Shown one piece after another: positions 8,055-50,055 of a stretch of 64,000 nucleotides of DNA. The DNA comes from an uncultured Akkermansia sp. (GTDB lineage: Bacteria > Verrucomicrobiota > Kiritimatiellia > RFP12 > JAAYNR01): contig CAZOJL010000002.1 of assembly GCA_964580075.1 (NCBI GenBank), positions 6,034 through 70,033 on the forward strand, in the 5' to 3' direction. Position 1 is the stretch's first letter. Every line of letters starts with the position of its first letter. Under the pieces are notes generated by a model. The model was not told the origin of the DNA and did no database searches. It saw only the letters and a list, made by a program, of their open reading frames with translations. Position numbers and translations under genes: made by a program.

Positions 8055-8072
8055 CCCGGGGGAACGTGCGCG

Positions 8073-9832: not shown

Positions 9833-10967
9833 CCCCGCCACGGGATGGCGGCAGAACGCGGTTCTGCGCGATGTTTTATTCTGGGTGCTGCGCGACTGGC
9901 GATGGAAGACGGTGGCGCTGGTGCTGGCGACCGCTCTCCATCTTTTTATCCGGGCGCGCATACGGCACACGGAGACGGTGATGGTGCCGCTGGATCTGGA
10001 TCCGCAGGCACAGGTGGCGGCTGCGACGATCGAGCCGCTCGCCGTGTCGGTGACCATTCAGGGGTCGCTGACGGAACTGCAGCGATTGGACAGCCGCCAG
10101 CTCCGCATGATTGTCCGTCCCAGCGTCTCGGAAGGGCGCACAGGACAGGGATCGTGGATCCGTCGCCTGTTGCGGTCGGCCGCGGGCAACCGTTCCCGCA
10201 TCACGGGCAATACCGAGGAGTTCCGTTTGACCGTGCGCAATCTCCAGGGGGGGAACCGGCAGATACGGGCGATCAAAATCGAACCCAAGATGGCGAAGGT
10301 CACCTATGACGTGCGCGGCGAGATCGAGTTGCCGGTGGCGGAGCCGGTCGTGCTGGGGAAGCCCTACCGGGGGCGTGTGGTCGTGGATTACACACCCAAG
10401 ACGGTTCGCGTGACCGGCTCGCGCGATCAGCTCGAAGAGATGGCCGCCAGCGGGGTGCAGTTGCAGACGGATCCGGTGGACGTCGACGGCCGCGTACAAG
10501 GCTACAAGAAGACGGTTCAGATTTTGCAACCCAGCGTGTCCCGGCTTGTCAAATTTGATCCTGCCGAAGTGACCGTTGAGGTCAAGATCATCACGGATCG
10601 GTTCACGATCAGTTTTTCGAACGTCACGGCGCTTGTGACCGGGTTTCCCGGCGACGGACAGGCGTGGCGCTGCGTGCCGCCCGAGGTGTCCGTACGGCTG
10701 ACCGGCCGTGCGGAAGTGGTCAACGCCATGCAACCCGGCCAGGTTTCGGTCTTTGTCGATATGCGCGATGCGCAGCGGCTCGGTACAAACGTCCTGCCGG
10801 TGAAGGTTTTTATTCCCTTTGACTTGTCGGTCGAAACGGCCGAGACGGAGCCGCCGGCCGTGACCGTGCTGGCGTTGCAGCCGGAGACCGTGCCGGAGGC
10901 GAAACCGGAAGCCGCGTCGGAGGCGGATCCCGATGGGGATGGTTCCGAAGCGGATCCCGAAGGATGA
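9825..10967 (+). CDS. cdaR: CdaA regulatory protein CdaR (YbbR-domain repeats)
   Basis: N-terminal transmembrane helix and repeated beta-rich YbbR-like segments. Overlaps the cdaA stop, in the conserved cdaA-cdaR arrangement. Acidic C-terminal tail. Confidence 0.65.
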   Translation: MTNPATGWRQNAVLRDVLFWVLRDWRWKTVALVLATALHLFIRARIRHTETVMVPLDLDPQAQVAAATIEPLAVSVTIQGSLTELQRLDSRQLRMIVRPSVSEGRTGQGSWIRRLLRSAAGNRSRITGNTEEFRLTVRNLQGGNRQIRAIKIEPKMAKVTYDVRGEIELPVAEPVVLGKPYRGRVVVDYTPKTVRVTGSRDQLEEMAASGVQLQTDPVDVDGRVQGYKKTVQILQPSVSRLVKFDPAEVTVEVKIITDRFTISFSNVTALVTGFPGDGQAWRCVPPEVSVRLTGRAEVVNAMQPGQVSVFVDMRDAQRLGTNVLPVKVFIPFDLSVETAETEPPAVTVLALQPETVPEAKPEAASEADPDGDGSEADPEG

Positions 10968-13588: not shown

Positions 13589-13609
13589 CGGGAAGGCAGG
13601 TGCGGATTT

Positions 13610-14503
13610 ATGGCGCTAGGATCGATCTTAAAAGAAGCACGTGAACGGAAAGGGCTGACATCCCAGCAGGTCGCCGAGACCACCCGGATGATGGTGCAGA
13701 TTGTGGAAGATCTCGAACTCGAGGATTTCCGCAGGATTGCCGCGCCGCTCTACGGAAGGGGTTTTATCAAGCTATATGCCGAATGTGTCGGCATCGAGCC
13801 GGACCCGTTGGTTGCGGAATTCATCGAGATATTCACGGGAAAGCGCCCCCCCCAGATTCAGCGCCGCGCGGTATCGGTCGCCCCTCCGGTGTCAGCGCGG
13901 TTGCAGCCGGATGCGCGCAAGCCGGAGACCGCGTCCCTGTCTGCGCCGATCACGTCCGGGCCGGGATTCCAACCGCCTGCACAGGGGAATGCACCGTCGC
14001 CTGGCGAACGGATCGAGCAGAAATCGGAACCCGCCCCGGAGGTGATGCCGCTGGACGAACCGGCAGAAGAACCGGCCTCTGATCTGTTTACCCTCGCGCA
14101 AAACAAGAGGCCGACTGCTCCGCAGCGGCAATCCCGTGGCGTCCGCGAGCCGGCGGCGCTGCCGCCCCGGGTTCTCCCGTTCAGCGGCGGGAGTCCGACA
14201 GCGGAGCAACCGGATGATCTCCCGGAAGAGACGGCCCCACCGCCTCCAAAACGATCGGGCGAAGCGGCGTGGTGCCCGTCCCGGGTGGTGGTGCGGGAAG
14301 TGGCTCGAATCTGGAGCGGCATGCCGCGGTTGCCCTCGGAGTGGCTAACGCCCCGACGGATGATGCTCGCCGTGGCTGTCGTGGCGGGCGTGGCCATTCT
14401 GCTGCTCGGTGTGCGCTTCCTCGCCTGGCTGACCGAACGGTCGGCTTCCCAGCCGGTCGTTTCCGTACGCGTGCTTCCGCCTCCGCCGCCCTATTTTGAG
14501 TGA
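13610..14503 (+). CDS. RodZ-like cytoskeleton protein (XRE-type HTH, Pro-rich linker, C-terminal transmembrane helix)
   Basis: N-terminal HTH_XRE (LKEARERKGLTSQQVAE) followed by a RGFIKLYAECVGI motif that matches the RodZ RGYIRSYARL region. Pro-rich linker and one transmembrane helix near the C-terminus. Confidence 0.55.
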   Translation: MALGSILKEARERKGLTSQQVAETTRMMVQIVEDLELEDFRRIAAPLYGRGFIKLYAECVGIEPDPLVAEFIEIFTGKRPPQIQRRAVSVAPPVSARLQPDARKPETASLSAPITSGPGFQPPAQGNAPSPGERIEQKSEPAPEVMPLDEPAEEPASDLFTLAQNKRPTAPQRQSRGVREPAALPPRVLPFSGGSPTAEQPDDLPEETAPPPPKRSGEAAWCPSRVVVREVARIWSGMPRLPSEWLTPRRMMLAVAVVAGVAILLLGVRFLAWLTERSASQPVVSVRVLPPPPPYFE

Positions 14504-35939: not shown

Positions 35940-36300
35940 CAACCCAGGTAACAGCAATTCTCATTATGAGGCGATTGGGTCATCGGGGTCGGGGTCGGGG
36001 TCGGTATCGGAATCGGAGTCGAAATTCCGTTGGATTTATCCTAAAAAGGGCAGAAGACTGTGAGACTGTGAGACTGTAAGGATTGGGAGGCAATCGGTTA
36101 TGCAAACGGGATCTGTTCACCATTGGGTGCGTGCGAATAAATCTGTAACCTGTTCATTTTCAACCTCATAGCCTTACAGTCTTACAGCCTATAGCCGTTT
36201 TTAGGTTTATCGATACCGATACCGATACCGACCCCGACGCCGATGGCCCCATCTCCAAAATGAAGGCGCATTTTTCACACGGTTCTGGAAAATTATGCTA
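35940..36300. repeat. MITE-like nested inverted-repeat element. It has a degenerate copy of the 46-mer head (35952-), outer inverted repeats GGGGTCGGGGTCGGGGTCGGTATCGG / CCGATACCGATACCGATACCGACCCCG (35987-36016 and 36211-36243), and inner inverted repeats CTGTGAGACTGTGAGACTGTAAGG / CCTTACAGTCTTACAGCC.
   Basis: Seen directly. The arms are reverse complements of each other and enclose a 23-codon mini-ORF with a GGGAGG Shine-Dalgarno (36099-36170). G4-forming tract at 35987-36005. Confidence 0.65.
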
Positions 36301-36410: not shown

Positions 36411-39272
36411 ATGACACTAACACCATACCACGCCAAGTATTACGCCTACGAACTCACTCGCCGCTGTTCATCCGACAGCATGGAGAAGTTCGCCGGCGTT
36501 GTCGCCGGCGCCCAGGTCGATCTGAACCCGCACCAGGTCGACGCAGCCCTATTCGCTTTCAACTCGCCACTCTCCCGCGGGGCACTCTTGGCCGACGAAG
36601 TAGGCCTGGGCAAGACCATCGAGGCTGGCATCGTCCTCTCCCAGAAGTGGGCCGAACGCAAACGCAAGATCCTCATCATCACACCGGCCAGTCTCCGCAA
36701 ACAATGGTTCCAGGAGATGGAGGACAAGTTCTTCCTGCCGTCCTGCATTCTCGAAACCCGATCTTACAACGAAGCTATCCGCCAAACCAGCCTACGCCCC
36801 TTCGAGGTGCCTGGAAAACTCGTCATCTGCTCCTACCAGTTCGCCCGCGCGAAAGCATCGGACGTTCAGGCCGTTCCCTGGGATCTCGTAGTCATTGACG
36901 AAGCCCACCGCTTGCGCAACGTCTACAAACCCAACAACGTCATAGCCAACACCCTGAAACAGGCCCTCGCACACGCGCCGAAACTCTTGCTCACCGCCAC
37001 CCCGCTTCAGAACTCCCTTCTGGAACTCTTCGGCCTCGTTAGTTTCATTGACGAACACGCCTTCGGCGACCTCCCGAGTTTCCGCGAACAGTTCGTCAAC
37101 CTCGACCAGCGCCAAGTTTTCGACACCCTCAAGGTCCGCCTCAAACCCATCTGCCAGCGCACCCTTCGCCGCCAGGTTACATCCTACATTCCCTTCACCA
37201 AGCGCCACCCGTTGTTGGAGGAGTTCACGCCAGAAGAGAGCGAGGATCGCCTCTACAACCTCGTCTCGGAATATCTGCAACGCGACAACCTGTTCGCCCT
37301 TCCACCAAGCCAGCGCTCCCTGATGACCCTCGTTCTTCGGAAACTCCTGGCCTCATCCACCTTCGCCATTGCCGGTGCCCTGAACACCATTTCCAACCGC
37401 CTGAAACTGACGCTCCACCGAAAATCGCCGGAACAATCCCTCGAAGAGGAACTGGACCAAGATTACGAAACCCTCGACGAAACTGCCGACGAATGGCAGG
37501 ACGAAAGCGCCGCCGCCGACCTCACAGATGACGACCGCTCCGCTTTGAAACAGGAAATCGCAGACCTCGACGCCTTTGCCACCCTCGCCACCTCCATTCA
37601 CCACAATGCCAAGGGCAAGGCGCTGGTCAAGGCGCTCACTGTCGCCTTTGCAAAGGCTGCCGAACTCGGCGCCCCCCAGAAAGCCGTCATCTTCACAGAA
37701 TCCCGCCGCACCCAGGACTACCTGCAACGCGTTCTCTCAGACAGTCCGTTTGCCGAAGGGATCGTTCTGTTCAACGGATCAAACACGGACGAAGGTTCCC
37801 GCCAGATATACAGCGCCTGGCACGACAAGCACCAAGGAACCGACCGTGTCAGCGGCTCCCGCACGGCCGACATGCGTTCCGCCCTCGTGGACTATTTCAG
37901 AGATCAGGGCCGGATCATGATTGCCACCGAGGCCGGCGCCGAAGGCATCAACCTCCAGTTCTGCTCCCTGATTGTGAACTACGACCTGCCCTGGAACCCC
38001 CAACGCATCGAACAGCGTATCGGCCGCTGTCACCGCTACGGTCAAAAACACGATGTCGTGGTGGTCAATTTCCTCAATCGTAAAAACGAGGCCGACCAGC
38101 GCGTCTACCAACTTCTGGCCGAGAAATTCAAACTCTTCGAGGGTGTTTTCGGCGCCAGCGATGAAATTCTCGGCACCATCGGCGCAGGCGTGGACTTCGA
38201 GAAACGCATCGCCGGCATCTACCAACGTTGCCGCAAGCATGAGGAGATCAGGACCGCATTCGATCAACTCCAACTGGAACTCAACCTCGAAATCAACGAG
38301 GCCATGACCCAGACCCGGCGCAAACTCCTCGAGAACTTCGACGATGAGGTCCGCGAAAAGCTAAAGGTGCGTGACGAAACATCAAAGGCCGTTCTCACCC
38401 GCTTCGAATACACCCTCATGCGCCTTACCCGCCACGAACTGGAGGGCCACGCCGAGTTTATCGATGACGGTTCCTTCCGCCTCACAACCGCCCCCTTTCC
38501 GGCCTTTTCGGGTGTCATCCCTCTTGGCCTGTACGAACTCCCGCGCCGTTCCGGCGAAGCGCACACCTACCGCCTCAGTCATCCTCTCGCCGTCGAGATC
38601 GTCAAGCGCGCCAAGGAACGCGACCTACCGATTTCCGAAGTCTGTTTCCGGTACAGCGAACATGAAGGCAAAGTCACGGCGCTAAAGCCGCTGGTCGGCC
38701 GCTGCGGATGGCTTTCCGTCGCACAGTTCACGGTCGAATCCCTCGATCAGGCCGAAGACCACCTGATACTCGTTGCCACCACAGACGATGGCGCATTGAT
38801 TGACGAAGAAGCCGCCCGCCGCTTGTTTTCCCTGCCAGGTGCCCCCGTCGGCCAGGAGACCACCGCACCCCCACCACCGGCCCTGCAAGACCTTGTCCAG
38901 CAGCGCCAGACTGCCATCACACGCACCATCTCCGAACGCAACGCTCGATTCTTCGAGACCGAGGCCACCAAACTGGAAAACTGGGCCGACGACGTGAAAC
39001 TCGGCCTCGAACGCGACATCAAGAACCTTGACCGACAAATCCGGGAAACCCGACGTGCGGCCACCGTCGCACTCACCTTAGAGGAGAAACTCGCCGGCCA
39101 GAAACAGATCAAAGCCCTTGAATCCCAGCGCAGCGAGAAACGCCGCTCCCTGTTCGAAGCACAGGATCAGGTGGACCGCCAACGCGCAGAGTTCATCTCG
39201 ATAATCGAAGGGAAACTGAAACAACAGACCGACCTCTCAACCGTCCTGACACTTCAATGGAGACTCGAATAA
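36411..39272 (+). CDS. SNF2-family (RapA/HepA-like) DEAD/DEAH helicase with a C-terminal coiled-coil extension
   Basis: SNF2_N motifs (LLADEVGLGKTIEAG, LVVIDEAHRLRN), helicase C domain (LIVNYDLPWNPQRIEQRIGRCHRYGQK), and a ~400-aa C-terminal region with coiled-coil character. Start uncertain; the ORF opens at 36309. Confidence 0.8.
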   Translation: MTLTPYHAKYYAYELTRRCSSDSMEKFAGVVAGAQVDLNPHQVDAALFAFNSPLSRGALLADEVGLGKTIEAGIVLSQKWAERKRKILIITPASLRKQWFQEMEDKFFLPSCILETRSYNEAIRQTSLRPFEVPGKLVICSYQFARAKASDVQAVPWDLVVIDEAHRLRNVYKPNNVIANTLKQALAHAPKLLLTATPLQNSLLELFGLVSFIDEHAFGDLPSFREQFVNLDQRQVFDTLKVRLKPICQRTLRRQVTSYIPFTKRHPLLEEFTPEESEDRLYNLVSEYLQRDNLFALPPSQRSLMTLVLRKLLASSTFAIAGALNTISNRLKLTLHRKSPEQSLEEELDQDYETLDETADEWQDESAAADLTDDDRSALKQEIADLDAFATLATSIHHNAKGKALVKALTVAFAKAAELGAPQKAVIFTESRRTQDYLQRVLSDSPFAEGIVLFNGSNTDEGSRQIYSAWHDKHQGTDRVSGSRTADMRSALVDYFRDQGRIMIATEAGAEGINLQFCSLIVNYDLPWNPQRIEQRIGRCHRYGQKHDVVVVNFLNRKNEADQRVYQLLAEKFKLFEGVFGASDEILGTIGAGVDFEKRIAGIYQRCRKHEEIRTAFDQLQLELNLEINEAMTQTRRKLLENFDDEVREKLKVRDETSKAVLTRFEYTLMRLTRHELEGHAEFIDDGSFRLTTAPFPAFSGVIPLGLYELPRRSGEAHTYRLSHPLAVEIVKRAKERDLPISEVCFRYSEHEGKVTALKPLVGRCGWLSVAQFTVESLDQAEDHLILVATTDDGALIDEEAARRLFSLPGAPVGQETTAPPPPALQDLVQQRQTAITRTISERNARFFETEATKLENWADDVKLGLERDIKNLDRQIRETRRAATVALTLEEKLAGQKQIKALESQRSEKRRSLFEAQDQVDRQRAEFISIIEGKLKQQTDLSTVLTLQWRLE

Positions 39273-39457
39273 TGCATAAAGAAACCCCGTCAGAACAACT
39301 CGCCGCCAAGATCGCCGACCGCCTAGTCAAAGAAGGTCTCTTGCCCCCGGATGCCGCCACCAGACTCAAACCCAAACTGGCCCAAGGAACCGTTACCCAA
39401 GATGACTGGAGACTTCCAATAGAACTGGGAGACAAGAAGAAGGAGGCTGCAAAATGA
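39272..39457 (+). CDS. Small hypothetical protein (~61 aa), translationally coupled between the SNF2 helicase and the ATPase
   Basis: TAATG overlap with the SNF2 stop and ATGA overlap with the ATPase start. Lys/Glu-rich, no recognisable domain. Confidence 0.35.
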   Translation: MHKETPSEQLAAKIADRLVKEGLLPPDAATRLKPKLAQGTVTQDDWRLPIELGDKKKEAAK

Positions 39458-41784
39458 GCATTCCAAGTCTAGTGAGCAATCCAGGTCTTCGGCAACTCAC
39501 CGTCGAGAACCTCCGCGGAGCTGTGGTCCCGTTCACGCTCCCTTTTGAGAAGAACAAGAAACTCACAATCGTCTACGGAGAGAATGCCACAGGCAAGTCA
39601 ACCATTTGCGATGCATTCGACTTTCTCGGGAAAGGAAATGTCGGCTCATTGGAAAACCGCGGACTGGGCCGCTCCGAAAGATACTGGCCGTCTATTGGAA
39701 AACCCGCCGGCGCTGTTTCGGTGACACTCGAAACCACCGACCTCGCCAAGTGCTGCGCAAAGATCGGAACAGGAGGTGTCACAGTCACGCCCCCGATCCC
39801 ACGTCCACGGGTCGAAGTGTTGCGCCGCAAACAAATACTCAAACTGATTGAGGCAACCGAGAGCGAACGCTACACGGAAATCCGCCGCTTCATTGACGTG
39901 TCGGCCGTGGAAACATCGGAAGGCACCCTTAACCAGTTGATCAAAGACCTGAACGCCAACCGCAACATTGCCGCAGCACGGTTAACAGAGAACCTAGACG
40001 CACTGACCAACTACTGGAACGCGGCCAGTCAACCAGGAAGCAATGCCCTGACATGGGCAACCACAGAAGCAAAACGAAACCAAACCACTTTAGACAAGGA
40101 GGCGGCCGCCCTGGCTTCACTTCAAGCCGCCTATGCCAGACTCACAGACTACCCGGCGCAACTCACGGCAACCACCCACACCCAGAATGCTGCAAAGGAG
40201 GCGGATGATGCCGCACAGGTCGCCGCAAAACAGTGCGCCCAAACGATTGCTGCAGACGCTGATGAGGTAATCGGCGTACTCCAAGCTGCCCAGACGTACC
40301 TGCACATACACCCGACACCCAAGGTCTGCCCTCTCTGCGAGAGCGCCGAAAAGACGGCAGGTCTGAACCAACGTATTTCACAACGCCTTGGTGCATTCGC
40401 GGCCCTCCAATCGGCACAGGGTCAAGTGAAGACTACCGCCACCGCCGTCCAACGCGCGGAGGCCCAACTCGAAGTCCTGAAGGCCGACGCAAAACGTAAC
40501 GCCGAAACATTTGAGAAAGCACGCACCGACTTTGCCTGGCCCGCGGACATACCACTACCAACATCACCCGCCCCCACGGACATCACCGCACTTGCGACAT
40601 GGCTTGCCGATACCGGTCCCCTGCCTGCCCAATGGAAACAAGCCGAAACCACCCGCCTGGACAAAAAACAGTTCATTGCCTCATTAAATGGGGCACTGAA
40701 AACATACAACGAGAATGTCAATACACAGAAGGAACTGGACGTTCTCCTGCCGAAACTCGATCACGCCTTGAAGATCGTCATTGAGGAACGCCGTGACTTC
40801 ACAGGAAAGATACTGGCGAACATCGCCACAGAAGTCGGCCGCATGTACGAACTCGTTCACCCAGGCGAAGGCCTGAGCAAGATCAGCTTGCAACTCGATC
40901 CCAAGAAACGTGCCTCTTTAGGAATTGGAGCCCCATTCGGCACCATGAAGGAGACCCCGCCGCAAGCCTACTTCAGCGACTCGCACCTCGACACACTAGG
41001 CTTGTGCATTTACTTGGCACTCACCGGACGAGATGAACCGGAGAAGATCATTCTCATAATTGACGACGTACTTGCGAGCGTTGACGAACCCCACGTTCAA
41101 CGACTCATCGAGATGTTGTACGACGAGACGGCAAAGTTCCGGCATTGTCTGATCACCACCCATTACCGCCCATGGAAAGAAAAGTTCCGATGGGGTTGGC
41201 TCAAGAATGCGCAATGCCAGTTTATCGAGTTGAAGGACTGGACGACAACCGAAGGCATCACACATGCCAACAGCGTGCCGGATATTGACCGCCTAAAGTC
41301 ACTTATAGCAGAGAAATCACCTGATTCCCAACTCGTATGCTCCAAAGCCGGCGTGATGTTGGAAGCGGCACTCGAGTTCCTGACCTTACTGTACCAATGC
41401 CGAGTTCCCCGAAAACCCGGCGATACATACACAGTCGGCGACCTCCTACCGGCGATTGACGACAAACTGCGCAAGTCCCTGCAAGTAGAGTGCGCCGTGA
41501 CAGACAAAGCCGGGACAGTCACATACCAAACGAAACAACTCGGCCCAATATTCGATGAACTGGACCGAATCTTCCAACTCCGGAATGTCTTCGGCTGCCA
41601 CTTCAACGAGATATCCTTCACCCTTCTGAACTCGGATGCCCTGACGTTTGGCAAGAAGGTGCTGGAGTTGATCGAAACCCTCGCCGATCCCGATGCCGGA
41701 TGGCCCCGCAGCGACAAGTCCGGCAACTACTGGGCGACCGCCAAGGAAACACGCCGGTTGCACCCCTTAAAGAAACCCAAGTGA
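39454..41784 (+). CDS. ABC/SMC-like (AAA_15/AAA_23-type) ATPase with a long coiled-coil insert and a C-terminal domain of unknown function
   Basis: N-terminal Walker A (GENATGKST) and a ~350-aa Ala/Gln-rich coiled coil. ABC-signature-like FSDSHLDTLGL, Walker B/D-loop IILIIDDVLASVDEPH, and H-loop ITTH. Confidence 0.75.
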   Translation: MSIPSLVSNPGLRQLTVENLRGAVVPFTLPFEKNKKLTIVYGENATGKSTICDAFDFLGKGNVGSLENRGLGRSERYWPSIGKPAGAVSVTLETTDLAKCCAKIGTGGVTVTPPIPRPRVEVLRRKQILKLIEATESERYTEIRRFIDVSAVETSEGTLNQLIKDLNANRNIAAARLTENLDALTNYWNAASQPGSNALTWATTEAKRNQTTLDKEAAALASLQAAYARLTDYPAQLTATTHTQNAAKEADDAAQVAAKQCAQTIAADADEVIGVLQAAQTYLHIHPTPKVCPLCESAEKTAGLNQRISQRLGAFAALQSAQGQVKTTATAVQRAEAQLEVLKADAKRNAETFEKARTDFAWPADIPLPTSPAPTDITALATWLADTGPLPAQWKQAETTRLDKKQFIASLNGALKTYNENVNTQKELDVLLPKLDHALKIVIEERRDFTGKILANIATEVGRMYELVHPGEGLSKISLQLDPKKRASLGIGAPFGTMKETPPQAYFSDSHLDTLGLCIYLALTGRDEPEKIILIIDDVLASVDEPHVQRLIEMLYDETAKFRHCLITTHYRPWKEKFRWGWLKNAQCQFIELKDWTTTEGITHANSVPDIDRLKSLIAEKSPDSQLVCSKAGVMLEAALEFLTLLYQCRVPRKPGDTYTVGDLLPAIDDKLRKSLQVECAVTDKAGTVTYQTKQLGPIFDELDRIFQLRNVFGCHFNEISFTLLNSDALTFGKKVLELIETLADPDAGWPRSDKSGNYWATAKETRRLHPLKKPK

Positions 41785-41843
41785 CACCTCTACTGTTCAC
41801 AAAACCCGGACTTAACGACCGACCGGAAGGAACCAAACGCACT

Positions 41844-43646
41844 ATGAGCCCCTTAACTCCGGCATACCTGGCCATACTTAAGAAACATCTCGCTGACAGG
41901 TACGTTGTTCACCTGCCACCACTCGCAAAGAACAGCAAAAACTCCGATGAAGTGGAGAAGAAAAACCTTTCGCGGGCTTTCAGCGCCTTCACATTGCATC
42001 ACCTTACTGGCGTTTCTGAAAAAGAAGCCGCAGAGTCAGTTGTGGACGATTTTGAAGACGTTGGTTTGGACGCCGTGTATTACTTCGCACCAACAGAGAC
42101 ACTTTTCCTGGTACAGTCCAAACTGAAAGCATCGGAAGAATTCAGCCAAGACGAAGCACTGGCGTTTTGTCAAGGCATACGCAAACTGATCAAAGAGGAC
42201 TTCAACGGGTTCAATGAACACGTGACACGACGCCAGACGGAAATCGAAGGCGCATTGGAACTATGCCGTGAGATCCAACTTGTTGTCGCACACACCGGTT
42301 CCGGCATCAGCAAACATGCTCGAACCGCTTTAGACGAACTCCGCCAGGATGAGACCCACGACGAACTACGGTTCACCCCCCCAATCCTGGATTTTGATGC
42401 AAACAAAGTAGTAAACGGCCTGCAAGGAAGTCATGCCTACAAACGCGTCGACACGAAACTTGTTGTCAGGAACTGCAAACACATTGCCGAACCAAGATCG
42501 ACATACTTCGGTCTAGCCAATATCATAGACTTGGTCGCACTGCACAAGACACATGACAAGGCACTCTACGACAAGAACATCCGGACATTTCTCGGTCACG
42601 AGACAGACGTGAATAAGGCTATCCAGAAGACATTAGCCGAGAAACCTGACCACTTTATCTACCTGAATAACGGCGTCACAGTGCTCTGCCAACAGATCGA
42701 CCCGAAGGACACTAACAAGAAGGAAGGCAGGCGCTTGGTAATCAAGGGGTTTTCCGTGGTGAACGGCGCCCAGACGATTGCGTCGTCCGCAAAGTATGTG
42801 GCCGATAACCCGGGTGCAAATATAGATTTTGCCCGCGTTTTGATCACACTGATTGAAGCTGCCGCTGACGGCGACTTTGGGAAGTCCGTCACCAGAGCCC
42901 GTAATCATCAGAATGAAGTCAAACAGTCCAACTTCGCTGCCCTTGACGACGGTCAGGAGAGACTTCGCAGGGATTTGGCGCAACTTGATATTCAGTACGC
43001 ATACAAGGCAGGAAGAACCGAAGGACCAGATGATCCCAACCGAATTCAGATTGAGGAAGCAGTTCAGGCATTGGCGCTACTTCAGGGCGACCCGCGATAC
43101 GCCGTCCGGTTGAAGAAGCAACCCGCTGACCTATTGAACACGGAGTCCGACCAGTACAAGGAACTTTTCGGTTCATCGCTCACTGCTTTCCAACTACTCA
43201 ATGCGGTTCTTGTAAATCGTTACGTCCAACGCCGGATTGGAGAAGAAGTCGGGAGAACGGGCGGCCAGGAAAGACTCGTTTACAAGCACGGGAACCACGT
43301 GATCGCATGGATACTCGCCAAGTGTGTAATGAAGGCCATTAACGAACCGGCACGCATAGACAACGCTAAACTCAACACTTTACTTAGCGTGCCGTTCGAT
43401 GAAATCAGACAAAAGCAATGGGACAAGGCCCAACCAGCCCTTGCGCAACGCGGACCGTTGTCTTTGTTCCGCAACCAAACCCATACCATCCCATTGATGC
43501 AACACCTCATGATCGACTTCTACGGTCTGACAAACGATCCAGTCATAGGACACAAACTCGCACAACAGCAACCTGGCGACCTCTATCCAACGCACCTCTT
43601 CGCGTACCTGATTCAACGGGCGCCCCAGATCGGGGGACTCTCATGA
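41844..43646 (+). CDS. AIPR-family (abortive infection phage resistance) protein
   Basis: N-terminal AIPR signature (SRAFSAFTLHHL..VDDFEDVGLDAVYYF..LFLVQSKL) and the central motif FIYLNNGVTVLC..GFSVVNGAQT characteristic of PF10592-type proteins. GGAAGG Shine-Dalgarno before the ATG at 41844; ATGA overlap with the downstream mod. Confidence 0.7.
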   Translation: MSPLTPAYLAILKKHLADRYVVHLPPLAKNSKNSDEVEKKNLSRAFSAFTLHHLTGVSEKEAAESVVDDFEDVGLDAVYYFAPTETLFLVQSKLKASEEFSQDEALAFCQGIRKLIKEDFNGFNEHVTRRQTEIEGALELCREIQLVVAHTGSGISKHARTALDELRQDETHDELRFTPPILDFDANKVVNGLQGSHAYKRVDTKLVVRNCKHIAEPRSTYFGLANIIDLVALHKTHDKALYDKNIRTFLGHETDVNKAIQKTLAEKPDHFIYLNNGVTVLCQQIDPKDTNKKEGRRLVIKGFSVVNGAQTIASSAKYVADNPGANIDFARVLITLIEAAADGDFGKSVTRARNHQNEVKQSNFAALDDGQERLRRDLAQLDIQYAYKAGRTEGPDDPNRIQIEEAVQALALLQGDPRYAVRLKKQPADLLNTESDQYKELFGSSLTAFQLLNAVLVNRYVQRRIGEEVGRTGGQERLVYKHGNHVIAWILAKCVMKAINEPARIDNAKLNTLLSVPFDEIRQKQWDKAQPALAQRGPLSLFRNQTHTIPLMQHLMIDFYGLTNDPVIGHKLAQQQPGDLYPTHLFAYLIQRAPQIGGLS

Positions 43647-45397
43647 CCAGACACCTCAAACTCGAACTCACCTGGATCGGCAAGGAGAACCGGCCCCGCC
43701 TGGAGCCGCGCATCCTCCTCGAAGATCCGGAGAAGTCGTATCACGCCGCACATCGGGTGAAGGAATGGCCGCAAGAGAACGCAAAAAACACAAAAGGCTC
43801 AGACTCTTTGCGCTCTCTGTGTTCTTTCGCGGCTAAGAATCCCTCCGATGTCGGCGATCTCTTCGACAACCGCCTCATCTTCGGCGACAACCTCCTCGCC
43901 CTCAAGGCACTTGAGCAAGAGTTCACCGGGAAAATTAGGTGCGTATTCATTGACCCACCCTACAACACGGGTAGCGCATTTACACACTACGACGATGGAG
44001 TTGAGCACTCTCTTTGGCTTTCTCTCATCAGAGATCGACTGGAGATGTTACGTCAACTCCTTGCCGATGACGGTTCTCTTTGGATCACTATTGACGACAA
44101 TGAATCTCATTATCTTAAGGTTTTGTGCGACGAAGTGTTTGGAAGGCAGAACTTCGTTGCCAATGTGGTCTGGCAAAAAAAATCGTCACCGCAACCAAAC
44201 GCGGTTTGGCTTTCCGACAGTCACGACCACATCCTTGTTTACGCGAAAAATAAATCTATATGGCGTCCAAATATGTTGGAGCGCAGTGTTGAAGCGAATT
44301 CGCGTTACAAGAATCCAGACAACGATCCCCGTGGTATGTGGACGTCTGGTGACTGCACAATCAGCTTGACCGGCGGGCAACGCGGAGCGCAGTTCGCTAG
44401 GACCGGTGTTTCGGAGAACATCTATGAAATTCAAACGCCGTCTGGGCGCAAGGTGTCTCCTCCACCTGGAACATGCTGGCGTTTTAGTAAGAAGCGATAT
44501 GAAGAACTGGTAAAAGAATACCGGATTTATTTTGGTGACACCGGCAATAACGTTCCAAGATACAAGAGATTCCTTTCAGAAGTTCAGGAAGGTATTGTCT
44601 GCATGACAGTGTGGCTTCGAACAGAAGTGAGCGATAATCAGGACGCGAAGCGAGAAGTAATGGTATTCAATTCCGAGCAGGTGTTTTCTACACCGAAACC
44701 CGAAAGGCTTTTACAACGCATCGTTGAGTTAGCGTCGAATCCCGGTGACTGGGTGCTCGACTCCTTCGCCGGTTCCGGCACTACGGGTGCGGTCGCTCAC
44801 AAGATGGGCCGGCGCTGGATCATGGTGGAACTGGGCGAGCATTGCCACACACACATCATTCCCCGACTCAAAAAAGTTATTGACGGTGAAGATTCTGGCG
44901 GCATCACGAAGTCCGTGGATTGGAAAGGCGGCGGTGGGTTCCGCTACTACCGGCTCGCGCCGTCGCTGCTGGAAAAGGACAAGTGGGGGCAGTGGGTCAT
45001 CAGCAAGGAGTTTAATGCCGCCATGTTGGCCGAGGCGGCCTGTAAACTGGAAGGGTTCACCTACGCCCCGAGCGACTCTGTCTATTGGCAACACGGGCAC
45101 TCCACCGAACGTGATTTCATCTATGTGACCACCCAGAATCTGAACGCCGCCCAACTTGCGCAGTTGAGCGATGAAGTCGGCCCGGATCGCACCTTGCTCG
45201 TGCTTTGCGCCGCCTTTCGCGCACCACGTGGCGACGCCGCCGAACGCTACCCGAACCTCACGGTGAAGAAGATTCCCAAACAGGTGCTTTCCCGTTGCGA
45301 ATGGGGGCATGATGATTACAGTCTAAACGTGGAGAACTTGCCCAAGGCACCGCCGAAGTTGGGGCAACAGGATCTGTTTGCGGAGGTTGGCAAATGA
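43643..45397 (+). CDS. Type III restriction-modification DNA methyltransferase (Mod subunit, N6-adenine/N4-cytosine class)
   Basis: LKLELTWIGKENRP N-terminus typical of Type III Mod, catalytic DPPYN motif, and a SAM-binding LDSFAGSGTTGAVA motif separated by a large target-recognition region. Confidence 0.85.
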   Translation: MTRHLKLELTWIGKENRPRLEPRILLEDPEKSYHAAHRVKEWPQENAKNTKGSDSLRSLCSFAAKNPSDVGDLFDNRLIFGDNLLALKALEQEFTGKIRCVFIDPPYNTGSAFTHYDDGVEHSLWLSLIRDRLEMLRQLLADDGSLWITIDDNESHYLKVLCDEVFGRQNFVANVVWQKKSSPQPNAVWLSDSHDHILVYAKNKSIWRPNMLERSVEANSRYKNPDNDPRGMWTSGDCTISLTGGQRGAQFARTGVSENIYEIQTPSGRKVSPPPGTCWRFSKKRYEELVKEYRIYFGDTGNNVPRYKRFLSEVQEGIVCMTVWLRTEVSDNQDAKREVMVFNSEQVFSTPKPERLLQRIVELASNPGDWVLDSFAGSGTTGAVAHKMGRRWIMVELGEHCHTHIIPRLKKVIDGEDSGGITKSVDWKGGGGFRYYRLAPSLLEKDKWGQWVISKEFNAAMLAEAACKLEGFTYAPSDSVYWQHGHSTERDFIYVTTQNLNAAQLAQLSDEVGPDRTLLVLCAAFRAPRGDAAERYPNLTVKKIPKQVLSRCEWGHDDYSLNVENLPKAPPKLGQQDLFAEVGK

Positions 45398-46617
45398 AGA
45401 AGAACCCCGCGCTTTATGAACGTGTCCGGCAGATTCTAGAATCTGCCCGGTCAACCGTGGCCCGGTCGGTGAACACGACCCAGGTGGTAGCGAATTGGCT
45501 GATCGGCCAGGAGATTGTGGAGGAAGAGCAAAAGGGAAAGCGCCGGGCTGACTACGGGAACGAGTTGATCATCGACCTGGCAAAACGATTGACGGCGGAT
45601 TTTGGAAACGGGTACTCCAAGGACAATCTCTTCTGGTTCCGCCGATTGTATCAAGGTTATCCGGAACTGCTGGCCCGGCAGAAATTTGACGCACTGCGTC
45701 AAATTTCCGACGCAGTGCCTCGGAAATCTACAGGCACAGGGACTTTTGCAGCATTTCCGTCAAAAACGCGCACCGTGCATAGTTGTTCTGTTGCGGAGAT
45801 TGGCTACGCAGTGCGTAGCCAATCCTGGAAACCCGGCCAACTCCATCCAACCCTCTCCTGGACCCACTACCGGACACTACTGCGCGTGGATAAACCCGAG
45901 ACCCGCGCCTTTTATGAAATCGAGGCAATCAAGAACAATTGGGGGGCGCGGGAACTGGAGCGGCAAATTTGCAGCCTGTTCTATGAACGACTGGCGTTGA
46001 GTCGGGACAAAAAGGGATTGATGCGTCTGGCGACAAAAGGGCAGGTTGTTCAGAAGCCAACGGATGTGTTCAAGGACCCAGTGGTCATGGAATTTCTGGG
46101 GCTTCCGGAATCGCCGAGACTGACCGAAACCGATCTGGAGACCGCCTTGATCAACAATCTCCAGTCATTTCTGCTGGAACTGGGCAAGGGGTTCGCCTTT
46201 GTGGCGCGACAGGGCCGACTGACACTGGACGGCGATCATTTTTACGTGGATCTTGTTTTCTATCATACGATCCTGAAGTGCTACGTGATCATTGATCTCA
46301 AGACCGGCAAACTCACACATCAGGACCTTGGGCAACTTCAACTGTACGTCAACTACTACGACCGGGAGAAACGCGCCACGGGCGATAATCCAACATTGGG
46401 GCTGATTCTCTGCGCCGAGAAGAACGACACCGTGGTGCGGTACACCTTGGGCAAAGACCAGAAAAAGCAGATATTCGCCAGCCGTTATCAGATGTACCTG
46501 CCGACCGAGGCCCAACTGCGGGCCGAGATACGCCGGGAAGTCCGATTGTTGCAAGCGCCAGAGATTGCAACGAAAAAACGCATGGAGCGTAAAGGACGAA
46601 TTGCTGCCCTAAGTTGA
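45394..46617 (+). CDS. DUF1016/YhcG-family protein with a C-terminal PD-(D/E)XK nuclease fold
   Basis: YhcG N-domain (LSWTHYRTLL..RAFYEIEAIKNNWGARELERQI) and C-terminal PD-(D/E)XK signature (DGDHFYVDLVFYH..YVIIDLKTGK). ATGA overlap with the mod stop. Confidence 0.7.
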   Translation: MKKNPALYERVRQILESARSTVARSVNTTQVVANWLIGQEIVEEEQKGKRRADYGNELIIDLAKRLTADFGNGYSKDNLFWFRRLYQGYPELLARQKFDALRQISDAVPRKSTGTGTFAAFPSKTRTVHSCSVAEIGYAVRSQSWKPGQLHPTLSWTHYRTLLRVDKPETRAFYEIEAIKNNWGARELERQICSLFYERLALSRDKKGLMRLATKGQVVQKPTDVFKDPVVMEFLGLPESPRLTETDLETALINNLQSFLLELGKGFAFVARQGRLTLDGDHFYVDLVFYHTILKCYVIIDLKTGKLTHQDLGQLQLYVNYYDREKRATGDNPTLGLILCAEKNDTVVRYTLGKDQKKQIFASRYQMYLPTEAQLRAEIRREVRLLQAPEIATKKRMERKGRIAALS

Positions 46618-46710
46618 ATACAGTTCATCTGGACAATTTACCATGTCCACGTCAAAACCGGAGCAGATCGAATGGCTATGAATGACATAACCGCACCCGA
46701 AGACCAACAA

Positions 46711-46787
46711 CCACTTCGCGCCTTCGCGTCTTCGCGTGAAATCCCAACGCAGACAGTCTCACGCGAAGGCGCGAAGGCGCGAAGTGG
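46711..46787. repeat. 29-bp near-perfect inverted repeat (CCACTTCGCGCCTTCGCGTCTTCGCGTGA / TCACGCGAAGGCGCGAAGGCGCGAAGTGG) with a 19-nt loop, immediately 5' of the GxxExxY start. A direct copy of the left arm lies 3' of the gene at 47172-47196.
   Basis: Seen directly; the arms are reverse complements with 1-2 mismatches. Confidence 0.7.
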
Positions 46788-46791
46788 GGAG

Positions 46792-47223
46792 ATGAACATC
46801 GAAGAGGTTTCGGCGATCATCGTGGATTGTGGTTACAAATTGCATGTTGAGGTAGGACCTGGCCTTTTGGAAAGCGTGTATGAAGTGGTCCTGGCCAAGA
46901 TGCTGGAACAACGCGGTTTGCGCGTGCGACGACAGGTTCCCGTGCCGATTGAATTAATGGGGTTGACGTTTGACGAAGGGTTTCGCGCGGATTTGATTGT
47001 CCATGATCGGGTGCTGGTGGAGTTGAAGTCGGTAGAAAACCTGGCCCCTGTTCACGGCAAGCAAGTCCTCACTTATCTCCGCCTTTTAAAGATGCCGCTA
47101 GGCTTGTTGATTAATTTTAGCGCCGCAACCTTCAAGGATGGCGTAAAGCGCATCGTCAACCAACATCATGATTTCGCGTCTTCGCGTCTTCGCGTGAACC
47201 AAGCCCTTTCGGAGAATCCATGA
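46792..47223 (+). CDS. GxxExxY-family protein (small PD-(D/E)XK-like nuclease-fold protein)
   Basis: GPGLLESVYE motif, plus DLIVHDRVLVELKSV and LLINF motifs that match the GxxExxY family consensus. GGGGAG Shine-Dalgarno upstream. The ORF continues past the family core to an ATGA overlap with res; the upstream ORF portion (46672-) is the translated hairpin. Confidence 0.65.
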   Translation: MNIEEVSAIIVDCGYKLHVEVGPGLLESVYEVVLAKMLEQRGLRVRRQVPVPIELMGLTFDEGFRADLIVHDRVLVELKSVENLAPVHGKQVLTYLRLLKMPLGLLINFSAATFKDGVKRIVNQHHDFASSRLRVNQALSENP

Positions 47224-49916
47224 AGCCCCAAGTCAACGCCATTGCCGGACGACTGAGTCTGCGCCAGCCCCAACGCCGCGCGTTGGAAATCCTCGACCGC
47301 GTTACGGAGATCGTCCCGCCCAAGAAGGGCGCTGACATCGCAGCCGCCTTGGCGGTCATCCGGTCCGAGTTTCCAACCGTCACCGATTTTGAGCGCGACT
47401 TTCCCTCCCTCTGTTTTGCCCTTGCCACTGGCGTTGGCAAGACGCGCCTCATGGGCGCTTTCATCACCTATCTCTATCAGGCATACGGCATCAACAACTT
47501 TTTCGTCATGGCTCCGAATCTGACGATCTACAACAAGTTGATCACGGACTTCACGCCCAACACCTCCAAGTATGTTTTCAAGGGAATCGCCGAGTTTGCC
47601 ACGGAGCCGCCGGAAATCATCACCGGCGACAACTACGAGGCCAAGGCAGGCACCTTGTTTGACGAGTTGATCCGCTGCCGGGTGAACATCTTCAATATCT
47701 CGAAGATCAACTCCGAAGTCCGAGGCGGCAAGTCGCCGCGCATCAAACGCCTCTCCGAGTACATCGGCGAGAGCTATTTCGAGTACTTGGCCAATCTGCC
47801 CGACCTTGTTCTCGTCATGGATGAATCGCACCGCTACCGGGCCAGCGCGGGCGTGCGGGCAATCAACGAACTCAAGCCCGTCCTGGGGCTGGAACTCACG
47901 GCCACGCCGTTTGTCGAGACCGGGAAGGGGCCTGTAGCGTTCAAGAACGTTATTCAGGATTACCCCCTTGGCAAGGCCATGGCCGATGGCTTTGTAAAGG
48001 AACCGGCCGTTGTCACGCGCAAGAATTTCAACCCGGCCGGCATGACGCCCGAAGCCGTGGAGCGCATGAAACTGGAGGACGGCGTCCGCCTGCACGAGAG
48101 CATCAAGGTGGAACTGGAGACGTACGCGCGCGAAACGGAAAACCGCCTCGTAAAACCGTTTGTCCTGGTCATCGCCCGCGATACCACGCACGCCAAGCAA
48201 CTCGTTGACCTGCTCCAATCCGAAACCTTCTTCGATGGCCGCTACAAGGAGAAGGTCATCCAGGTCGATTCCAGCAAGACCGGCGCCGAAGAAGACGAGA
48301 TGGTTGAGCGCTTGCTCAAGGTCGAGCACACGGACGAACCAACCGAAATTGTGATTCACGTCAACATGCTCAAGGAGGGGTGGGACGTCACCAACCTCTA
48401 CACCATCGTCCCTCTTCGTGCCGCCAATGCCCGCACCCTCATCGAGCAGTCCATCGGCCGCGGCCTGCGCCTGCCATACGGCAAGCGCACAGGCGTCACC
48501 AGCGTGGATCGCCTGAACATCGTAGCCCATGACAAGTTTCAGGAGATCGTGGACGAAGCCAAGAAACCCGGCTCTGCCATCCATCTCCAGCAGGTCATCC
48601 TGGCCGACGACACACTTAGCCAGAAGACCGTCACCATGGTCTCCCAGTCCCAACTCGCCAATCGCCTGGGCCTGACTGTGGATCAACCGACACCCAGCAC
48701 GCTACAACCCGAGGCAGCGGCCAAGCCGATATTTACACAGCCGGAAGAACAGAAGATCGCGCAACTCACCTACGAGGCCATCAAGAGGCTCGAAAGTCAG
48801 CCCACGGCCGTGCCGGGCGTCTCATTCCTGTCGAACCCGGACGTGCAGGCAGCCATTCAAAAGGAAGTGGCAAGCCGGTATCAACCCCCGGTTCAGATGG
48901 AGATGGATGTCGTCACCGCGAAGCCAGACATTGCGGCCATTGTTGCCGCCACGGCAGAACTGGTCATCCAGCAGACTATCGATATTCCCCGAATTCTCGT
49001 GGTGCCCGCCGGCAAGGTCCAATCCGGCTTCAAGCCATTTGTCCTGAAACTGGATACGCTCAATTACCCGCCGGTCTCCGAAGAACTTTGGGCCAAACAC
49101 CTGCGCACCGATCAGGTTGATGTCATCGCCATGGGCAAGGGCGGTACTGAGGAAGAGCGCCTGGAAGACTACGTTGTTTCCGGCTTGGTTGATTTCGACG
49201 ACATCTCATACGACGCGCACGCAGATCTTCTGTACGATCTGGCAGGTCAGGTTGTGCGCCATCTCCGGTCCTACCTCAAGGAAGAAGCGGAGACTCGAAA
49301 GGTTCTCCGGTGTTATCAGCGGGACATCGCCCGGTTTGTCCATGCCCAGATGCAGGAGCACTACTGGGAAGCGGCTACCTCTCTCGACGTGACGATCACC
49401 AAGGGGTTCACCGAACTCAAACGAAGCGCCTACACCACCGATGCCCGAGATCCGGTCAAGGATTATCGGTATTCACTGGCGGACAAGAGCAACATGCCCA
49501 AGCACCTCTTCGGCGGTTTCACAAAATGCCTCTATCCGGTCCAGAAGTTTCAGTCCGACCCGGAGCGCAAGATGGCTGTGATCCTCGAACGCGAATCCGA
49601 CAAATGGTTCCGGCCGGCCAAGGGCCAATTCCAGATCTACTACAAGTCCGGCGCCGAGCAACCCGAATATCAGCCAGACTTCGTGGCCGAGACGGCCGAC
49701 GTCATCTACATGCTCGAACCCAAACGCCGCGACGAGTTGCAGGATGCCGACGTGCAGGCCAAGAAAGCCGTTGCTGAAATCTGGTGCCAGCACGCCACCG
49801 CACACGCCAAGACCTACAACGGCAAGCCCTGGCAATACCTCCTCATCCCCCACGACGCCATCGCCGACAACATGACGCTCGAAGGGCTCGCCGCCCTGTT
49901 CAAGGACAACGAATGA
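47220..49916 (+). CDS. Type III restriction enzyme Res subunit (SF2 helicase-nuclease)
   Basis: Helicase motif I ALATGVGKTR, motif II LVLVMDESHRY, a helicase C region, and a C-terminal endonuclease region. ~900 aa, positioned with mod. Confidence 0.85.
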   Translation: MKPQVNAIAGRLSLRQPQRRALEILDRVTEIVPPKKGADIAAALAVIRSEFPTVTDFERDFPSLCFALATGVGKTRLMGAFITYLYQAYGINNFFVMAPNLTIYNKLITDFTPNTSKYVFKGIAEFATEPPEIITGDNYEAKAGTLFDELIRCRVNIFNISKINSEVRGGKSPRIKRLSEYIGESYFEYLANLPDLVLVMDESHRYRASAGVRAINELKPVLGLELTATPFVETGKGPVAFKNVIQDYPLGKAMADGFVKEPAVVTRKNFNPAGMTPEAVERMKLEDGVRLHESIKVELETYARETENRLVKPFVLVIARDTTHAKQLVDLLQSETFFDGRYKEKVIQVDSSKTGAEEDEMVERLLKVEHTDEPTEIVIHVNMLKEGWDVTNLYTIVPLRAANARTLIEQSIGRGLRLPYGKRTGVTSVDRLNIVAHDKFQEIVDEAKKPGSAIHLQQVILADDTLSQKTVTMVSQSQLANRLGLTVDQPTPSTLQPEAAAKPIFTQPEEQKIAQLTYEAIKRLESQPTAVPGVSFLSNPDVQAAIQKEVASRYQPPVQMEMDVVTAKPDIAAIVAATAELVIQQTIDIPRILVVPAGKVQSGFKPFVLKLDTLNYPPVSEELWAKHLRTDQVDVIAMGKGGTEEERLEDYVVSGLVDFDDISYDAHADLLYDLAGQVVRHLRSYLKEEAETRKVLRCYQRDIARFVHAQMQEHYWEAATSLDVTITKGFTELKRSAYTTDARDPVKDYRYSLADKSNMPKHLFGGFTKCLYPVQKFQSDPERKMAVILERESDKWFRPAKGQFQIYYKSGAEQPEYQPDFVAETADVIYMLEPKRRDELQDADVQAKKAVAEIWCQHATAHAKTYNGKPWQYLLIPHDAIADNMTLEGLAALFKDNE

Positions 49917-49954: not shown

Positions 49955-50055
49955 TCTTTTTCGTCGATTTCGGTCCCGATCCCGATCCCGATCCCAATCC
50001 CGATTTGGATCCCGATAGCGGCTGCCAGTGTTAGAATTGCTGGTATGGGCAGTGT
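49955..50055. repeat. Reverse-orientation copy of the intergenic repeat family: (GATCCC)n tandems plus the exact 46-mer at 49997-50042
   Basis: Reverse complement of 49997-50042 equals 5749-5794 at 46 of 46 positions. Confidence 0.75.

Follow-up and report, generated by a model that had tools for sequence, protein, structure and literature searches.

An eight-gene defence island in an Akkermansia contig

We analysed a 64,000-nucleotide stretch of DNA from an uncultured Akkermansia sp. (assembly GCA_964580075.1, contig CAZOJL010000002.1, positions 6,034 to 70,033), hereafter called the window, in which eight co-directional genes on the + strand span positions 36411-49916. A preliminary description made from the letters had taken the first four of them, encoding an SNF2 protein, a micro-protein, an ATPase and an AIPR protein, as one novel defence module. 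We divide the island differently, into three layers: the SNF2 protein goes with the Type III restriction proteins Mod and Res as a backbone, the micro-protein and the ATPase make up a separate cassette, and the AIPR protein is best read as exchangeable cargo. We hold this reading, in which the cassette is probably an RNase guard, with moderate confidence. The overall comparison took in about 95 related loci. The genes are the following:

36411-39272, + strand: SNF2 protein, 953 aa
39272-39457, + strand: micro-protein open reading frame (ORF), 61 aa
39454-41784, + strand: ATPase, 776 aa
41844-43646, + strand: AIPR protein, 600 aa
43643-45397, + strand: mod, Type III Mod, a beta-class amino-methyltransferase
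45394-46617, + strand: DUF1016, YhcG PD-(D/E)XK nuclease-family protein
46672-47223, + strand: GxxExxY, PDDEXK_3 protein, 183-aa ORF, likely true start ATG 46792
47220-49916, + strand: res, Type III Res, a superfamily 2 (SF2) helicase-like ATPase with a C-terminal PD-(D/E)XK motif

Translations and junction sequences agree with the gene positions and overlaps given in the preliminary description. SNF2 and the small gene join through TAATG, while ATGA joins the small gene to the ATPase gene, AIPR to mod, mod to DUF1016 and GxxExxY to res; a 59-nt gap lies between ATPase and AIPR. These overlapping junctions bear out its view of a co-directional, tightly packed defence operon, and its domain calls (SNF2, ABC/SMC ATPase, AIPR, Mod, DUF1016, GxxExxY and Res) were likewise recovered with Pfam, PADLOC and NCBIfam. 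The same eight genes were called independently on four metagenome contigs that bear the identical locus.

The G+C content of the island is 0.51-0.59 compared to 0.62-0.69 in its flanks, and it is bordered by housekeeping genes (a SpoU methylase on one side, lpxK and murJ on the other). Because of this lower G+C and the position between housekeeping genes, the block of about 13.6 kb is a horizontally acquired defence island. A scan of the island for promoters and terminators gave counts below the shuffled expectation.

A Rad50-like ATPase with a C-terminal HEPN domain and a conserved small partner

The C-terminal part of the ATPase had been called unknown, and at the level of sequence models this stands: no Pfam, NCBIfam or PADLOC model recognises it, Pfam yields nothing useful for the C-terminus or the coiled coil at E<=10, and a search of PDB sequences with a profile of the domain found no match. 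With a profile of the whole ATPase, the same PDB search gave only marginal matches to Rad50 (E ~0.02), and in Pfam the protein matches AAA_23/SMC_N. The structure prediction that the preliminary description had proposed shows, however, that the domain is not of a new kind. The AlphaFold2 (AF2) model, with a predicted local distance difference test score (pLDDT) of 80.5, consists of an ABC N-lobe (residues 1-148), a helical insert (150-468), an ABC C-lobe (480-605) and a C-terminal domain (611-776). The last has a four-helix up-down fold together with the Rx4-6H active-site motif that defines HEPN (PMC3710099), here in the form of an invariant RNxxxxH. In a Foldseek search the head lies nearest to Rad50, followed by SMC heads, LmuB of Lamassu and JetC, and is thus Rad50/SMC-like. 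The features of the ATPase that matter below are:

39577..39603, + strand: Walker A GENATGKST, residues 42-50, K48 invariant in 70/70
40327..40338, + strand: CPLC, residues 292-295, in the coiled-coil apical loop, predicted zinc hook
41284..41781, + strand: HEPN domain, residues 611-776, at the ATPase C-terminus
41581..41601, + strand: RNVFGCH, HEPN Rx4-6H motif (R710, N711, H716), invariant in 70/70

An alignment of ATPase homologues shows invariant Walker A, CPxC, signature-like SxSHxD, Walker B DD, H-loop and C-terminal RNxxGxH motifs. All 70 full-length homologues, down to 30 % identity, retain K48, C292, P293, C295, D537, D538, H570, R710, N711, G714 and H716, and the ABC residues S508, H511 and D513 are invariant among the homologues as well. 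In the AF2 model CPLC sits at the apex of the insert, in a non-helical stretch (residues 286-303) flanked by long helices; RloC and Rad50 are defined by such a coiled coil with a CxxC zinc hook at its tip (PMC2610378). An exhaustive profile search with the C-terminal domain returned 603 cluster representatives, and among the best 150 of these the domain lies at the C-terminus of every near-full-length protein of about 750-790 aa. This constant placement suggests that the domain is confined to the architecture of ABC head, coiled coil and HEPN. The protein is thus a Rad50/SMC-like ABC ATPase with a coiled coil, a predicted zinc hook and a C-terminal HEPN domain; the latter makes it RloC-like in architecture rather than new in kind, and it forms a family separate from RloC.

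The family is large: full-length homologues, about 770 aa in length, number in the hundreds, and at E<=1e-10 there are 363 cluster representatives. We scanned for ATPase homologues in one genome per species and obtained 148 loci, of which the best 80 were examined and underlie the locus counts given here. The proteins of the window were searched against all ORFs of the related loci, and counts of flanking genes refer to the loci with enough flank (n=64 upstream, n=61 downstream). The loci come from Alpha-, Beta-, Gamma- and Deltaproteobacteria, including Neisseria, Eikenella, Thermomonas and Sphingopyxis, and from Verrucomicrobiota, Acidobacteriota, Cyanobacteria, Bacteroidota, Planctomycetota, Leptospira, Binatia and Armatimonadota. 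The order that recurs runs from SNF2 through the small ORF and the ATPase to Mod and Res: SNF2 lies upstream of the ATPase gene in 59/64 loci, and on its 3' side Mod is found in 56/61 and Res in 54/61, with both present in 54/61. The gene-neighbourhood check suggested for SNF2, ATPase and AIPR therefore came out in part, since SNF2, the micro-protein and the ATPase accompany Type III Mod and Res across many phyla but AIPR does so only in a minority of loci.

The 61-aa ORF is a real gene, since a profile search places a homologue of it beside the ATPase gene in 72/80 loci; in 54 of these 72 its stop codon overlaps the ATPase start (NTGA). Its conserved pattern is TPS..LA.KI..RL...L...KL..GKL..EDWRL..E. 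As the preliminary description had it, the micro-protein has no recognisable domain: it finds no family in Pfam, NCBIfam or PADLOC, and nothing useful in Pfam at E<=10.

Some members of the ATPase family are found away from restriction genes. On Hymenobacter and Fibrella plasmids, homologues with 30 % identity have neither SNF2 nor Mod or Res in their neighbourhood, and a few chromosomal loci (L034, L086) also have the ATPase gene without the backbone. On the one Hymenobacter plasmid that was examined for it (L087), a micro-protein homologue lies directly upstream of the stand-alone ATPase gene (E 3.9e-5). The micro-protein and the ATPase are thus a two-gene cassette in their own right that is found outside the backbone too. 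The order SNF2, small gene, ATPase, mod is also present at 6440-13774 of a 51.7-kb contig from a viral collection (L088, IMGVR_UViG_3300048834_001057), again with a micro-protein homologue directly upstream of the ATPase gene. From this contig we suggest that the system may travel on prophage-like elements as well.

The Type III backbone and the genes in its junctions

The SNF2 protein matches Pfam SNF2-rel_dom (1.7e-34) and Helicase_C and has no other domain in Pfam; its translation contains GLGKT and DEAH motifs, and its C-terminal region has no useful Pfam match at E<=10. It scores highly against PADLOC DrmD (4.5e-210), while the match to NCBIfam DrmD_b reaches 711 bits for a cut-off of 950 and is limited to the core, residues 31-667. 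Mod matches Pfam N6_N4_Mtase (8e-48) and PADLOC MTase_III (3.4e-220), with DPPY N-terminal of FAGSG, and Res matches Pfam ResIII (9e-21) and PADLOC REase_III (2.8e-207), with GVGKT, DESH and PD...EPK motifs. These are the properties of a Type III system: a beta-class Mod with DPPY before FxGxG, and a mod gene ahead of a res gene that carries SF2 motifs and C-terminal PD-(D/E)XK motifs.

Full-length SNF2 homologues, with 41-56 % identity that includes the C-terminal third, occur on plasmids without any ATPase homologue and precede Mod and Res in every case inspected. Such loci are found on plasmids of Salmonella, Deinococcus, Cupriavidus, Aeromonas, Rhizobium, Roseomonas, Sphingopyxis, Ketogulonicigenium and Paracoccus, and in most ATPase-less loci Mod is 45-64 % and Res 43-52 % identical to the proteins of the window. 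Ketogulonicigenium and Paracoccus plasmids have the bare three genes SNF2, Mod and Res. The loci in Cupriavidus and Rhizobium have a small helix-turn-helix (HTH) gene ahead and a Mod with only 26-29 % identity over partial length, and a DUF262 gene separates Mod from Res in Rhizobium. Longer arrays are present on Salmonella IncFIB plasmids (HTH, SNF2, [IS256], Abi, hypothetical, Mod, Res), a Deinococcus plasmid (SNF2, AIPR, HTH, hypothetical, VapC, Mod, Res) and an Aeromonas plasmid (WYL, SNF2, AAA ATPase, DUF4276, Mod, Res), while about 30 E. coli chromosomes have HTH, SNF2, Abi, hypothetical, Mod and Res at the selC island. Approached from the other end, a full-length Res homologue is present in 23 plasmid records, and SNF2 lies upstream in 7/7 representative loci opened. 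Because SNF2, Mod and Res are found together without the ATPase, the small gene or AIPR, the SNF2 protein belongs with Mod and Res and not with the ATPase.

Murray et al. 2021 (PMC8259958) reported a subgroup of Type III systems (Eco86II, BspHIV) in which an additional helicase-like ATPase gene precedes mod, tightly linked to Mod and Res in hundreds of genomes. In the island and its relatives an SF2 helicase-like ATPase stands 5' of mod in the same way, with SNF2 upstream in the 59/64 ATPase-anchored loci. Judged by gene order and description, the backbone is probably this subgroup. Both sets have a co-directional SF2 ATPase without a nuclease motif, a beta-class Mod and a Res with helicase and PD-(D/E)XK parts, and backbone relatives occur in E. 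coli and Salmonella, the hosts of the published GAGCC systems. The published systems methylate N4-cytosine, and no inserts between the extra ATPase and mod appear in PMC8259958, whereas the island has three extra genes there. E. coli NCTC86 was not among the megablast matches of two E. coli SNF2 alleles. In the libraries and papers covered, the cassette is the part that is still new, together with the marked preference that it shows for an SNF2-type Type III backbone; the ATPase family has no name in Pfam, NCBIfam or PADLOC but may already be listed in the ABC-ATPase classification of Krishnan et al. 2020.

Backbones with and without the cassette are related in an interleaved manner. The SNF2 protein of E. 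coli and Salmonella, whose loci lack the cassette, is 67 % identical to that of a cassette-bearing Methylobacter locus and only 47 % to that of the window; the cassette has thus been gained or lost repeatedly. Pairwise divergence values of the ATPase correlate with those of Res (Spearman 0.78) and of SNF2 (0.63).

The remaining genes of the island occupy junctions that are filled differently from locus to locus. The AIPR protein (Pfam AIPR 2e-38, 133 bits for a cut-off of 25) is found in 14/80 loci in either of two slots, SNF2/small gene or ATPase/mod, and also in the Deinococcus backbone without ATPase. DUF1016, which matches YhcG_C (2.4e-58), DUF1016_N (5.4e-35) and the PADLOC candidate PDC-S02 (7.6e-141), is present in 13/80 loci and GxxExxY in 2/80. 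Extra genes fill the mod/res junction in 28 of the 80 loci, ATPase/mod in 20 and SNF2/small gene in 14. Inserts sampled from these slots include RhuM (recurrent), GmrSD, an OLD-type AAA_15 ATPase, a MORC-like GHKL ATPase, DUF4365 and HTH-M78, and at the plasmid loci Abi, VapC, DUF262 and AAA with DUF4276. The RhuM-family protein of about 350 aa lies in the mod/res slot of L028 (2.8e-111) and L041 (2.3e-107). Accessory genes of this sort are typical inside restriction operons (PMC3710099), and AIPR, DUF1016 and GxxExxY are best read as independent, exchangeable cargo of a restriction operon. No other cargo comes near the cassette in fidelity to the SNF2-type backbone. What has been described up to this point, from gene content and synteny to domain folds and invariant motifs, is directly observed.

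Several further observations were made on the cargo and on the ends of the backbone. ORFs of a size similar to that of RhuM (300-375 aa) fill the mod/res slot of about 8 more loci (L010, L011, L023, L025, L044, L046, L055 and L065). A "hypothetical protein" encoded after the Abi gene of an E. coli locus (8323-8943 of L101) has 29 % identity to AIPR residues 408-598 and may be a split or degraded AIPR-like cargo. For GxxExxY, the matches to PDDEXK_3 (3.3e-36) and TIGR04256 (3.8e-37) both start at residue 45-46 of the 183-aa ORF; as the Pfam match begins at residue 45, the true start is probably the ATG at 46792. A near-perfect hairpin lies inside the annotated 5' end of this gene at 46711-46787 (29-nt arms, 97 % complementary) and consists of the octamer repeats (CTTCGCGT)3/(CGCGAAGG)3. 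A third, inverted copy of the octamer repeat is located at its 3' end (47173-47197), so that the repeats bracket the gene like a small mobile cassette.

An HTH gene of about 66 aa opens most backbones in Proteobacteria and Planctomycetes; it overlaps the SNF2 start in L101 (E. coli 2014C-3011, NZ_CP027591.1, 4115-13464), L090, L092, L093, L094 and L096 and carries the name "MAD1" of MADS from the Prokaryotic Genome Annotation Pipeline (PGAP). This gene was not found upstream of SNF2 in the window. Directly after res, three plasmid loci have a large convergent AAA ATPase (L096 18196-20694, L099 13687-17420, L100 14045-16882), and the annotations there read "double-strand break repair", an adjoining "DNA repair exonuclease" and "TrlF family"; this ATPase may be a recurrent neighbour of the backbone. 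On the E. coli plasmid pEC316_2 (L092, 9001-18521) a 45 %-identical SNF2 protein is followed by a 1046-aa methyltransferase, a 1120-aa DEAD/DEAH helicase and IS26. The SNF2 family thus also pairs with modules other than Type III, here possibly a DISARM-like one.

Named systems, possible function and neighbouring repeats

The closest parallel to the cassette is provided by RloC and PrrC. These proteins combine an N-terminal ABC ATPase with a C-terminal RNase domain of the HEPN superfamily, an activity that is predicted here from the motif, and the island ATPase has the same ABC elements (Walker A, signature, Walker B and linchpin His) on a Rad50-like fold. RloC shares the coiled-coil insert with a CxxC zinc hook, and PrrC (in EcoprrI) and some RloC (in Type I/III loci) are encoded inside restriction-modification operons. 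Unlike them, the ATPase of the window has no match to Pfam AAA_13 at E<=0.01, 43/46 of its homologues match AAA_13 only at the level of a generic ABC model, and the motif is RNxxxxH in place of their R-x3-E-x36-52-H triad. The family further differs in having a conserved, translationally coupled partner of 58-61 aa and in lying almost always beside an SNF2-type Type III system.

Lamassu likewise has a Rad50/SMC-like ATPase with a folded coiled coil, a toxic effector, a small partner and an abortive logic, but its effector LmuA is separate whereas the putative effector domain is fused to the ATPase here, and the 61-aa partner does not resemble LmuC. The LmuB match is weak and partial (63.5 bits), with no match to LmuA or LmuC, and Lamassu was rejected. 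The 600-aa AIPR protein matches the PADLOC AbiU profile nearly end to end (6e-39, profile positions 13-512 of 537). AbiUi alone gives phage resistance in Lactococcus (PMC13064643), and the island protein is only distantly related to it.

The SNF2 protein resembles DrmD of class 1 DISARM, ArmA of ARMADA and BrxHII of BREX type 3 in preceding a methyltransferase and a helicase-nuclease, and its core scores best against DrmD models. Unlike those systems, the island pairs its SNF2 protein with a classical Type III Mod/Res, and a DrmA/YprA-DUF1998 helicase, a PLD nuclease and PglX/PglZ are all missing from its eight genes; the C-terminal third of SNF2 is unmatched by DrmD_b. Class 1 DISARM (DrmD, DrmMI, DrmA, DrmB/DUF1998 and optionally DrmC/PLD) was rejected for the missing DUF1998 and PLD and for the DrmD_b score below its cut-off, and ARMADA for the DrmA/YprA-DUF1998 helicase that it needs and that is absent from the eight proteins.

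The preliminary description had also considered an arrangement like Hma or Mza, and neither was borne out. Hma likewise combines an SNF2 helicase with a methylase and an ATPase in an operon into which other defence genes insert, and its parts are HmaA (SNF2 with DUF3883/NOV_C), HmaB (DUF1156 methylase) and HmaC (DUF499 AAA+ ATPase) (PMC11232893). DUF3883/NOV_C, DUF1156 and DUF499 are all absent in Pfam searches, the match to HmaA (2.2e-49) is far poorer than that to DrmD, and HmaC is not among the best 25 of the 28 PADLOC matches of the ATPase. For Mza, MzaE reaches 52.6 bits for a cut-off of 1050 and no other component matched. MADS, in which MAD6, MAD7 and MAD8 are mandatory in addition to MAD1-5 (bioRxiv 2023.03.30.534895), is matched only by a weak mad3 hit of the ATPase (2.2e-09), and the PGAP label "mads1" in E. 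coli relatives concerns the upstream HTH gene only. BREX-related systems centred on DUF499 were considered and rejected too. PADLOC assigns the gene set to no named system, in agreement with the earlier statement that it could be matched to none.

By analogy with known restriction systems and their guards, the island could work as follows. Mod would mark self DNA and Res, with its helicase and PD-(D/E)XK parts, would cut unmarked DNA, with SNF2 as a conserved third partner of the backbone. As PrrC does with EcoprrI and as in RloC, the ABC head and the coiled coil would hold the HEPN domain inactive and serve as a sensor. PrrC is silenced by EcoprrI and freed when Stp of phage T4 blocks restriction, and in RloC the zinc hook and DNA-dependent ATPase form the gate and DNA breaks the activating signal (PMC2610378, PMC3710099, PMC12707154). 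The trigger in the island might correspondingly be a restriction complex that fails or is inhibited, or DNA ends and damage arising during infection.

HEPN RNases are generally dimeric with a composite active site, so that ATP-driven engagement of Rad50-like heads would be a natural switch, pairing two HEPN domains into an active RNase. This RNase would cut tRNA or other RNA, translation would stop and the infection would be aborted. The micro-protein might act as a stoichiometric regulator; given its adjacency and translational coupling to the ATPase, an inhibitor or an adaptor is the simplest reading. AIPR, DUF1016 and GxxExxY would add an independent back-up defence of the nuclease type. 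The analogies just given are the basis on which we infer the RNase activity and what triggers it, a coupling to the restriction complex and a role for the small protein.

Several points weigh against this scheme. The stand-alone copies of the cassette (L034, L086 and the Hymenobacter plasmids) mean that it may not need a restriction system, and joint transfer of the genes, without any functional coupling, could explain the correlated divergence. As the HEPN motif is of the classical Rx5H type and not the R-x3-E...H triad, RloC and PrrC give no guide to the RNA target. The SNF2 protein is probably equivalent to the extra ATPase of Eco86II and BspHIV, an equivalence that follows from published description and not from direct sequence identity, and the role given to the micro-protein is a guess.

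The guard function can be worded more specifically: the cassette would be a dedicated guard, with the micro-protein or the coiled coil as its point of contact to SNF2, Mod or Res, and the HEPN RNase would fire when restriction fails, for instance through a phage anti-restriction factor. We advance this version tentatively. Alternatively, the cassette may be a self-contained, RloC-like abortive module that senses DNA damage or phage factors, the junctions being insertion hotspots with no link to SNF2, Mod or Res. The stand-alone copies, which keep their motifs and their small partner, the many unrelated cargo genes that share the slots and the fact that RloC is mostly unlinked to restriction loci (PMC2610378) are all consistent with such independence. 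We nevertheless consider it doubtful, as the cassette follows this SNF2 directly and in the same position in 59/64 loci, a fidelity that AIPR, DUF1016 and RhuM are far from reaching, and co-divergence with Res is as strong for the ATPase as for SNF2.

It is also conceivable that SNF2, micro-protein, ATPase, Mod and Res, with or without AIPR, form one obligate machine like DISARM or BREX, in which the ATPase and SNF2 are needed for restriction or for telling self from non-self. Conservation of the gene order across at least 10 phyla, the stop/start overlaps along the operon, the co-divergence of the ATPase with Res and SNF2, and the essential role of related SNF2 proteins in methylation-based systems (ArmA in ARMADA II and the AsaH helicase in an ietAS variant) would all fit this idea. 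We judge it unlikely, because cassette-less backbones are common and interleaved with cassette-bearing ones, the cassette without backbone keeps all its motifs, AIPR is confined to a minority of loci and varies in slot, unrelated defence genes occupy the same slots, and Eco86II, whose extra ATPase is dispensable for methylation, cut DNA in vitro in a preparation from which that ATPase was missing (PMC8259958). Finally, a DNA-directed role in which the ATPase reads ends or topology like LmuB and JetC, the HEPN fold merely binds or oligomerises and Res or AIPR is the effector is very improbable: the LmuB match in PADLOC (5.6e-18), the Foldseek matches to LmuB and JetC and the existence of non-catalytic HEPN domains (PMC3710099) speak for it, but R710, N711 and H716 are invariant in 70/70 homologues down to 30 % identity, the signature of a catalytic HEPN, and neither Pfam nor PADLOC finds a partner like LmuA or LmuC.

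Likeness to PrrC and RloC makes the cassette a good candidate for a guard that serves Type III restriction as PrrC serves EcoprrI. The junction just after SNF2 appears as a preferred home of abortive-infection modules, which hints that the SNF2 protein may link restriction to back-up defences and gives a testable role to the third, SNF2-like gene of hundreds of Type III systems (PMC8259958). If the cassette is indeed a guard, Type III restriction would have a "restriction plus suicide" circuit like that of PrrC, with SNF2 as the coupling platform, and the widespread family of ABC, zinc hook and HEPN with a 58-61-aa partner would be the Type III counterpart of PrrC in EcoprrI. The ABC-HEPN protein would also offer a compact model for a Rad50-like sensor that gates an RNase, and genes annotated as "AAA family ATPase" in these operons could be renamed as putative ABC-HEPN effectors.

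Hairpin-forming intergenic elements made of tandem hexamers, (TCGGGG)n/(CGATAC)n, lie at 35970-36256, 49970-50016 and 5788-5847 of the window and also hold a (AGACTGTG)n octamer. In the element at 35970-36256, which lies just upstream of SNF2, the arms are 46 nt long and 85 % complementary; a (TCCCGA)7 array follows just after res at 49970-50016, and the third copy is 30 kb away. The hexamer-element pattern has 15 matches compared to 0.5 expected. Although two of the elements flank the island, such elements are found outside it as well, and they therefore look like a genome-wide repeat of the repetitive extragenic palindromic (REP) kind.

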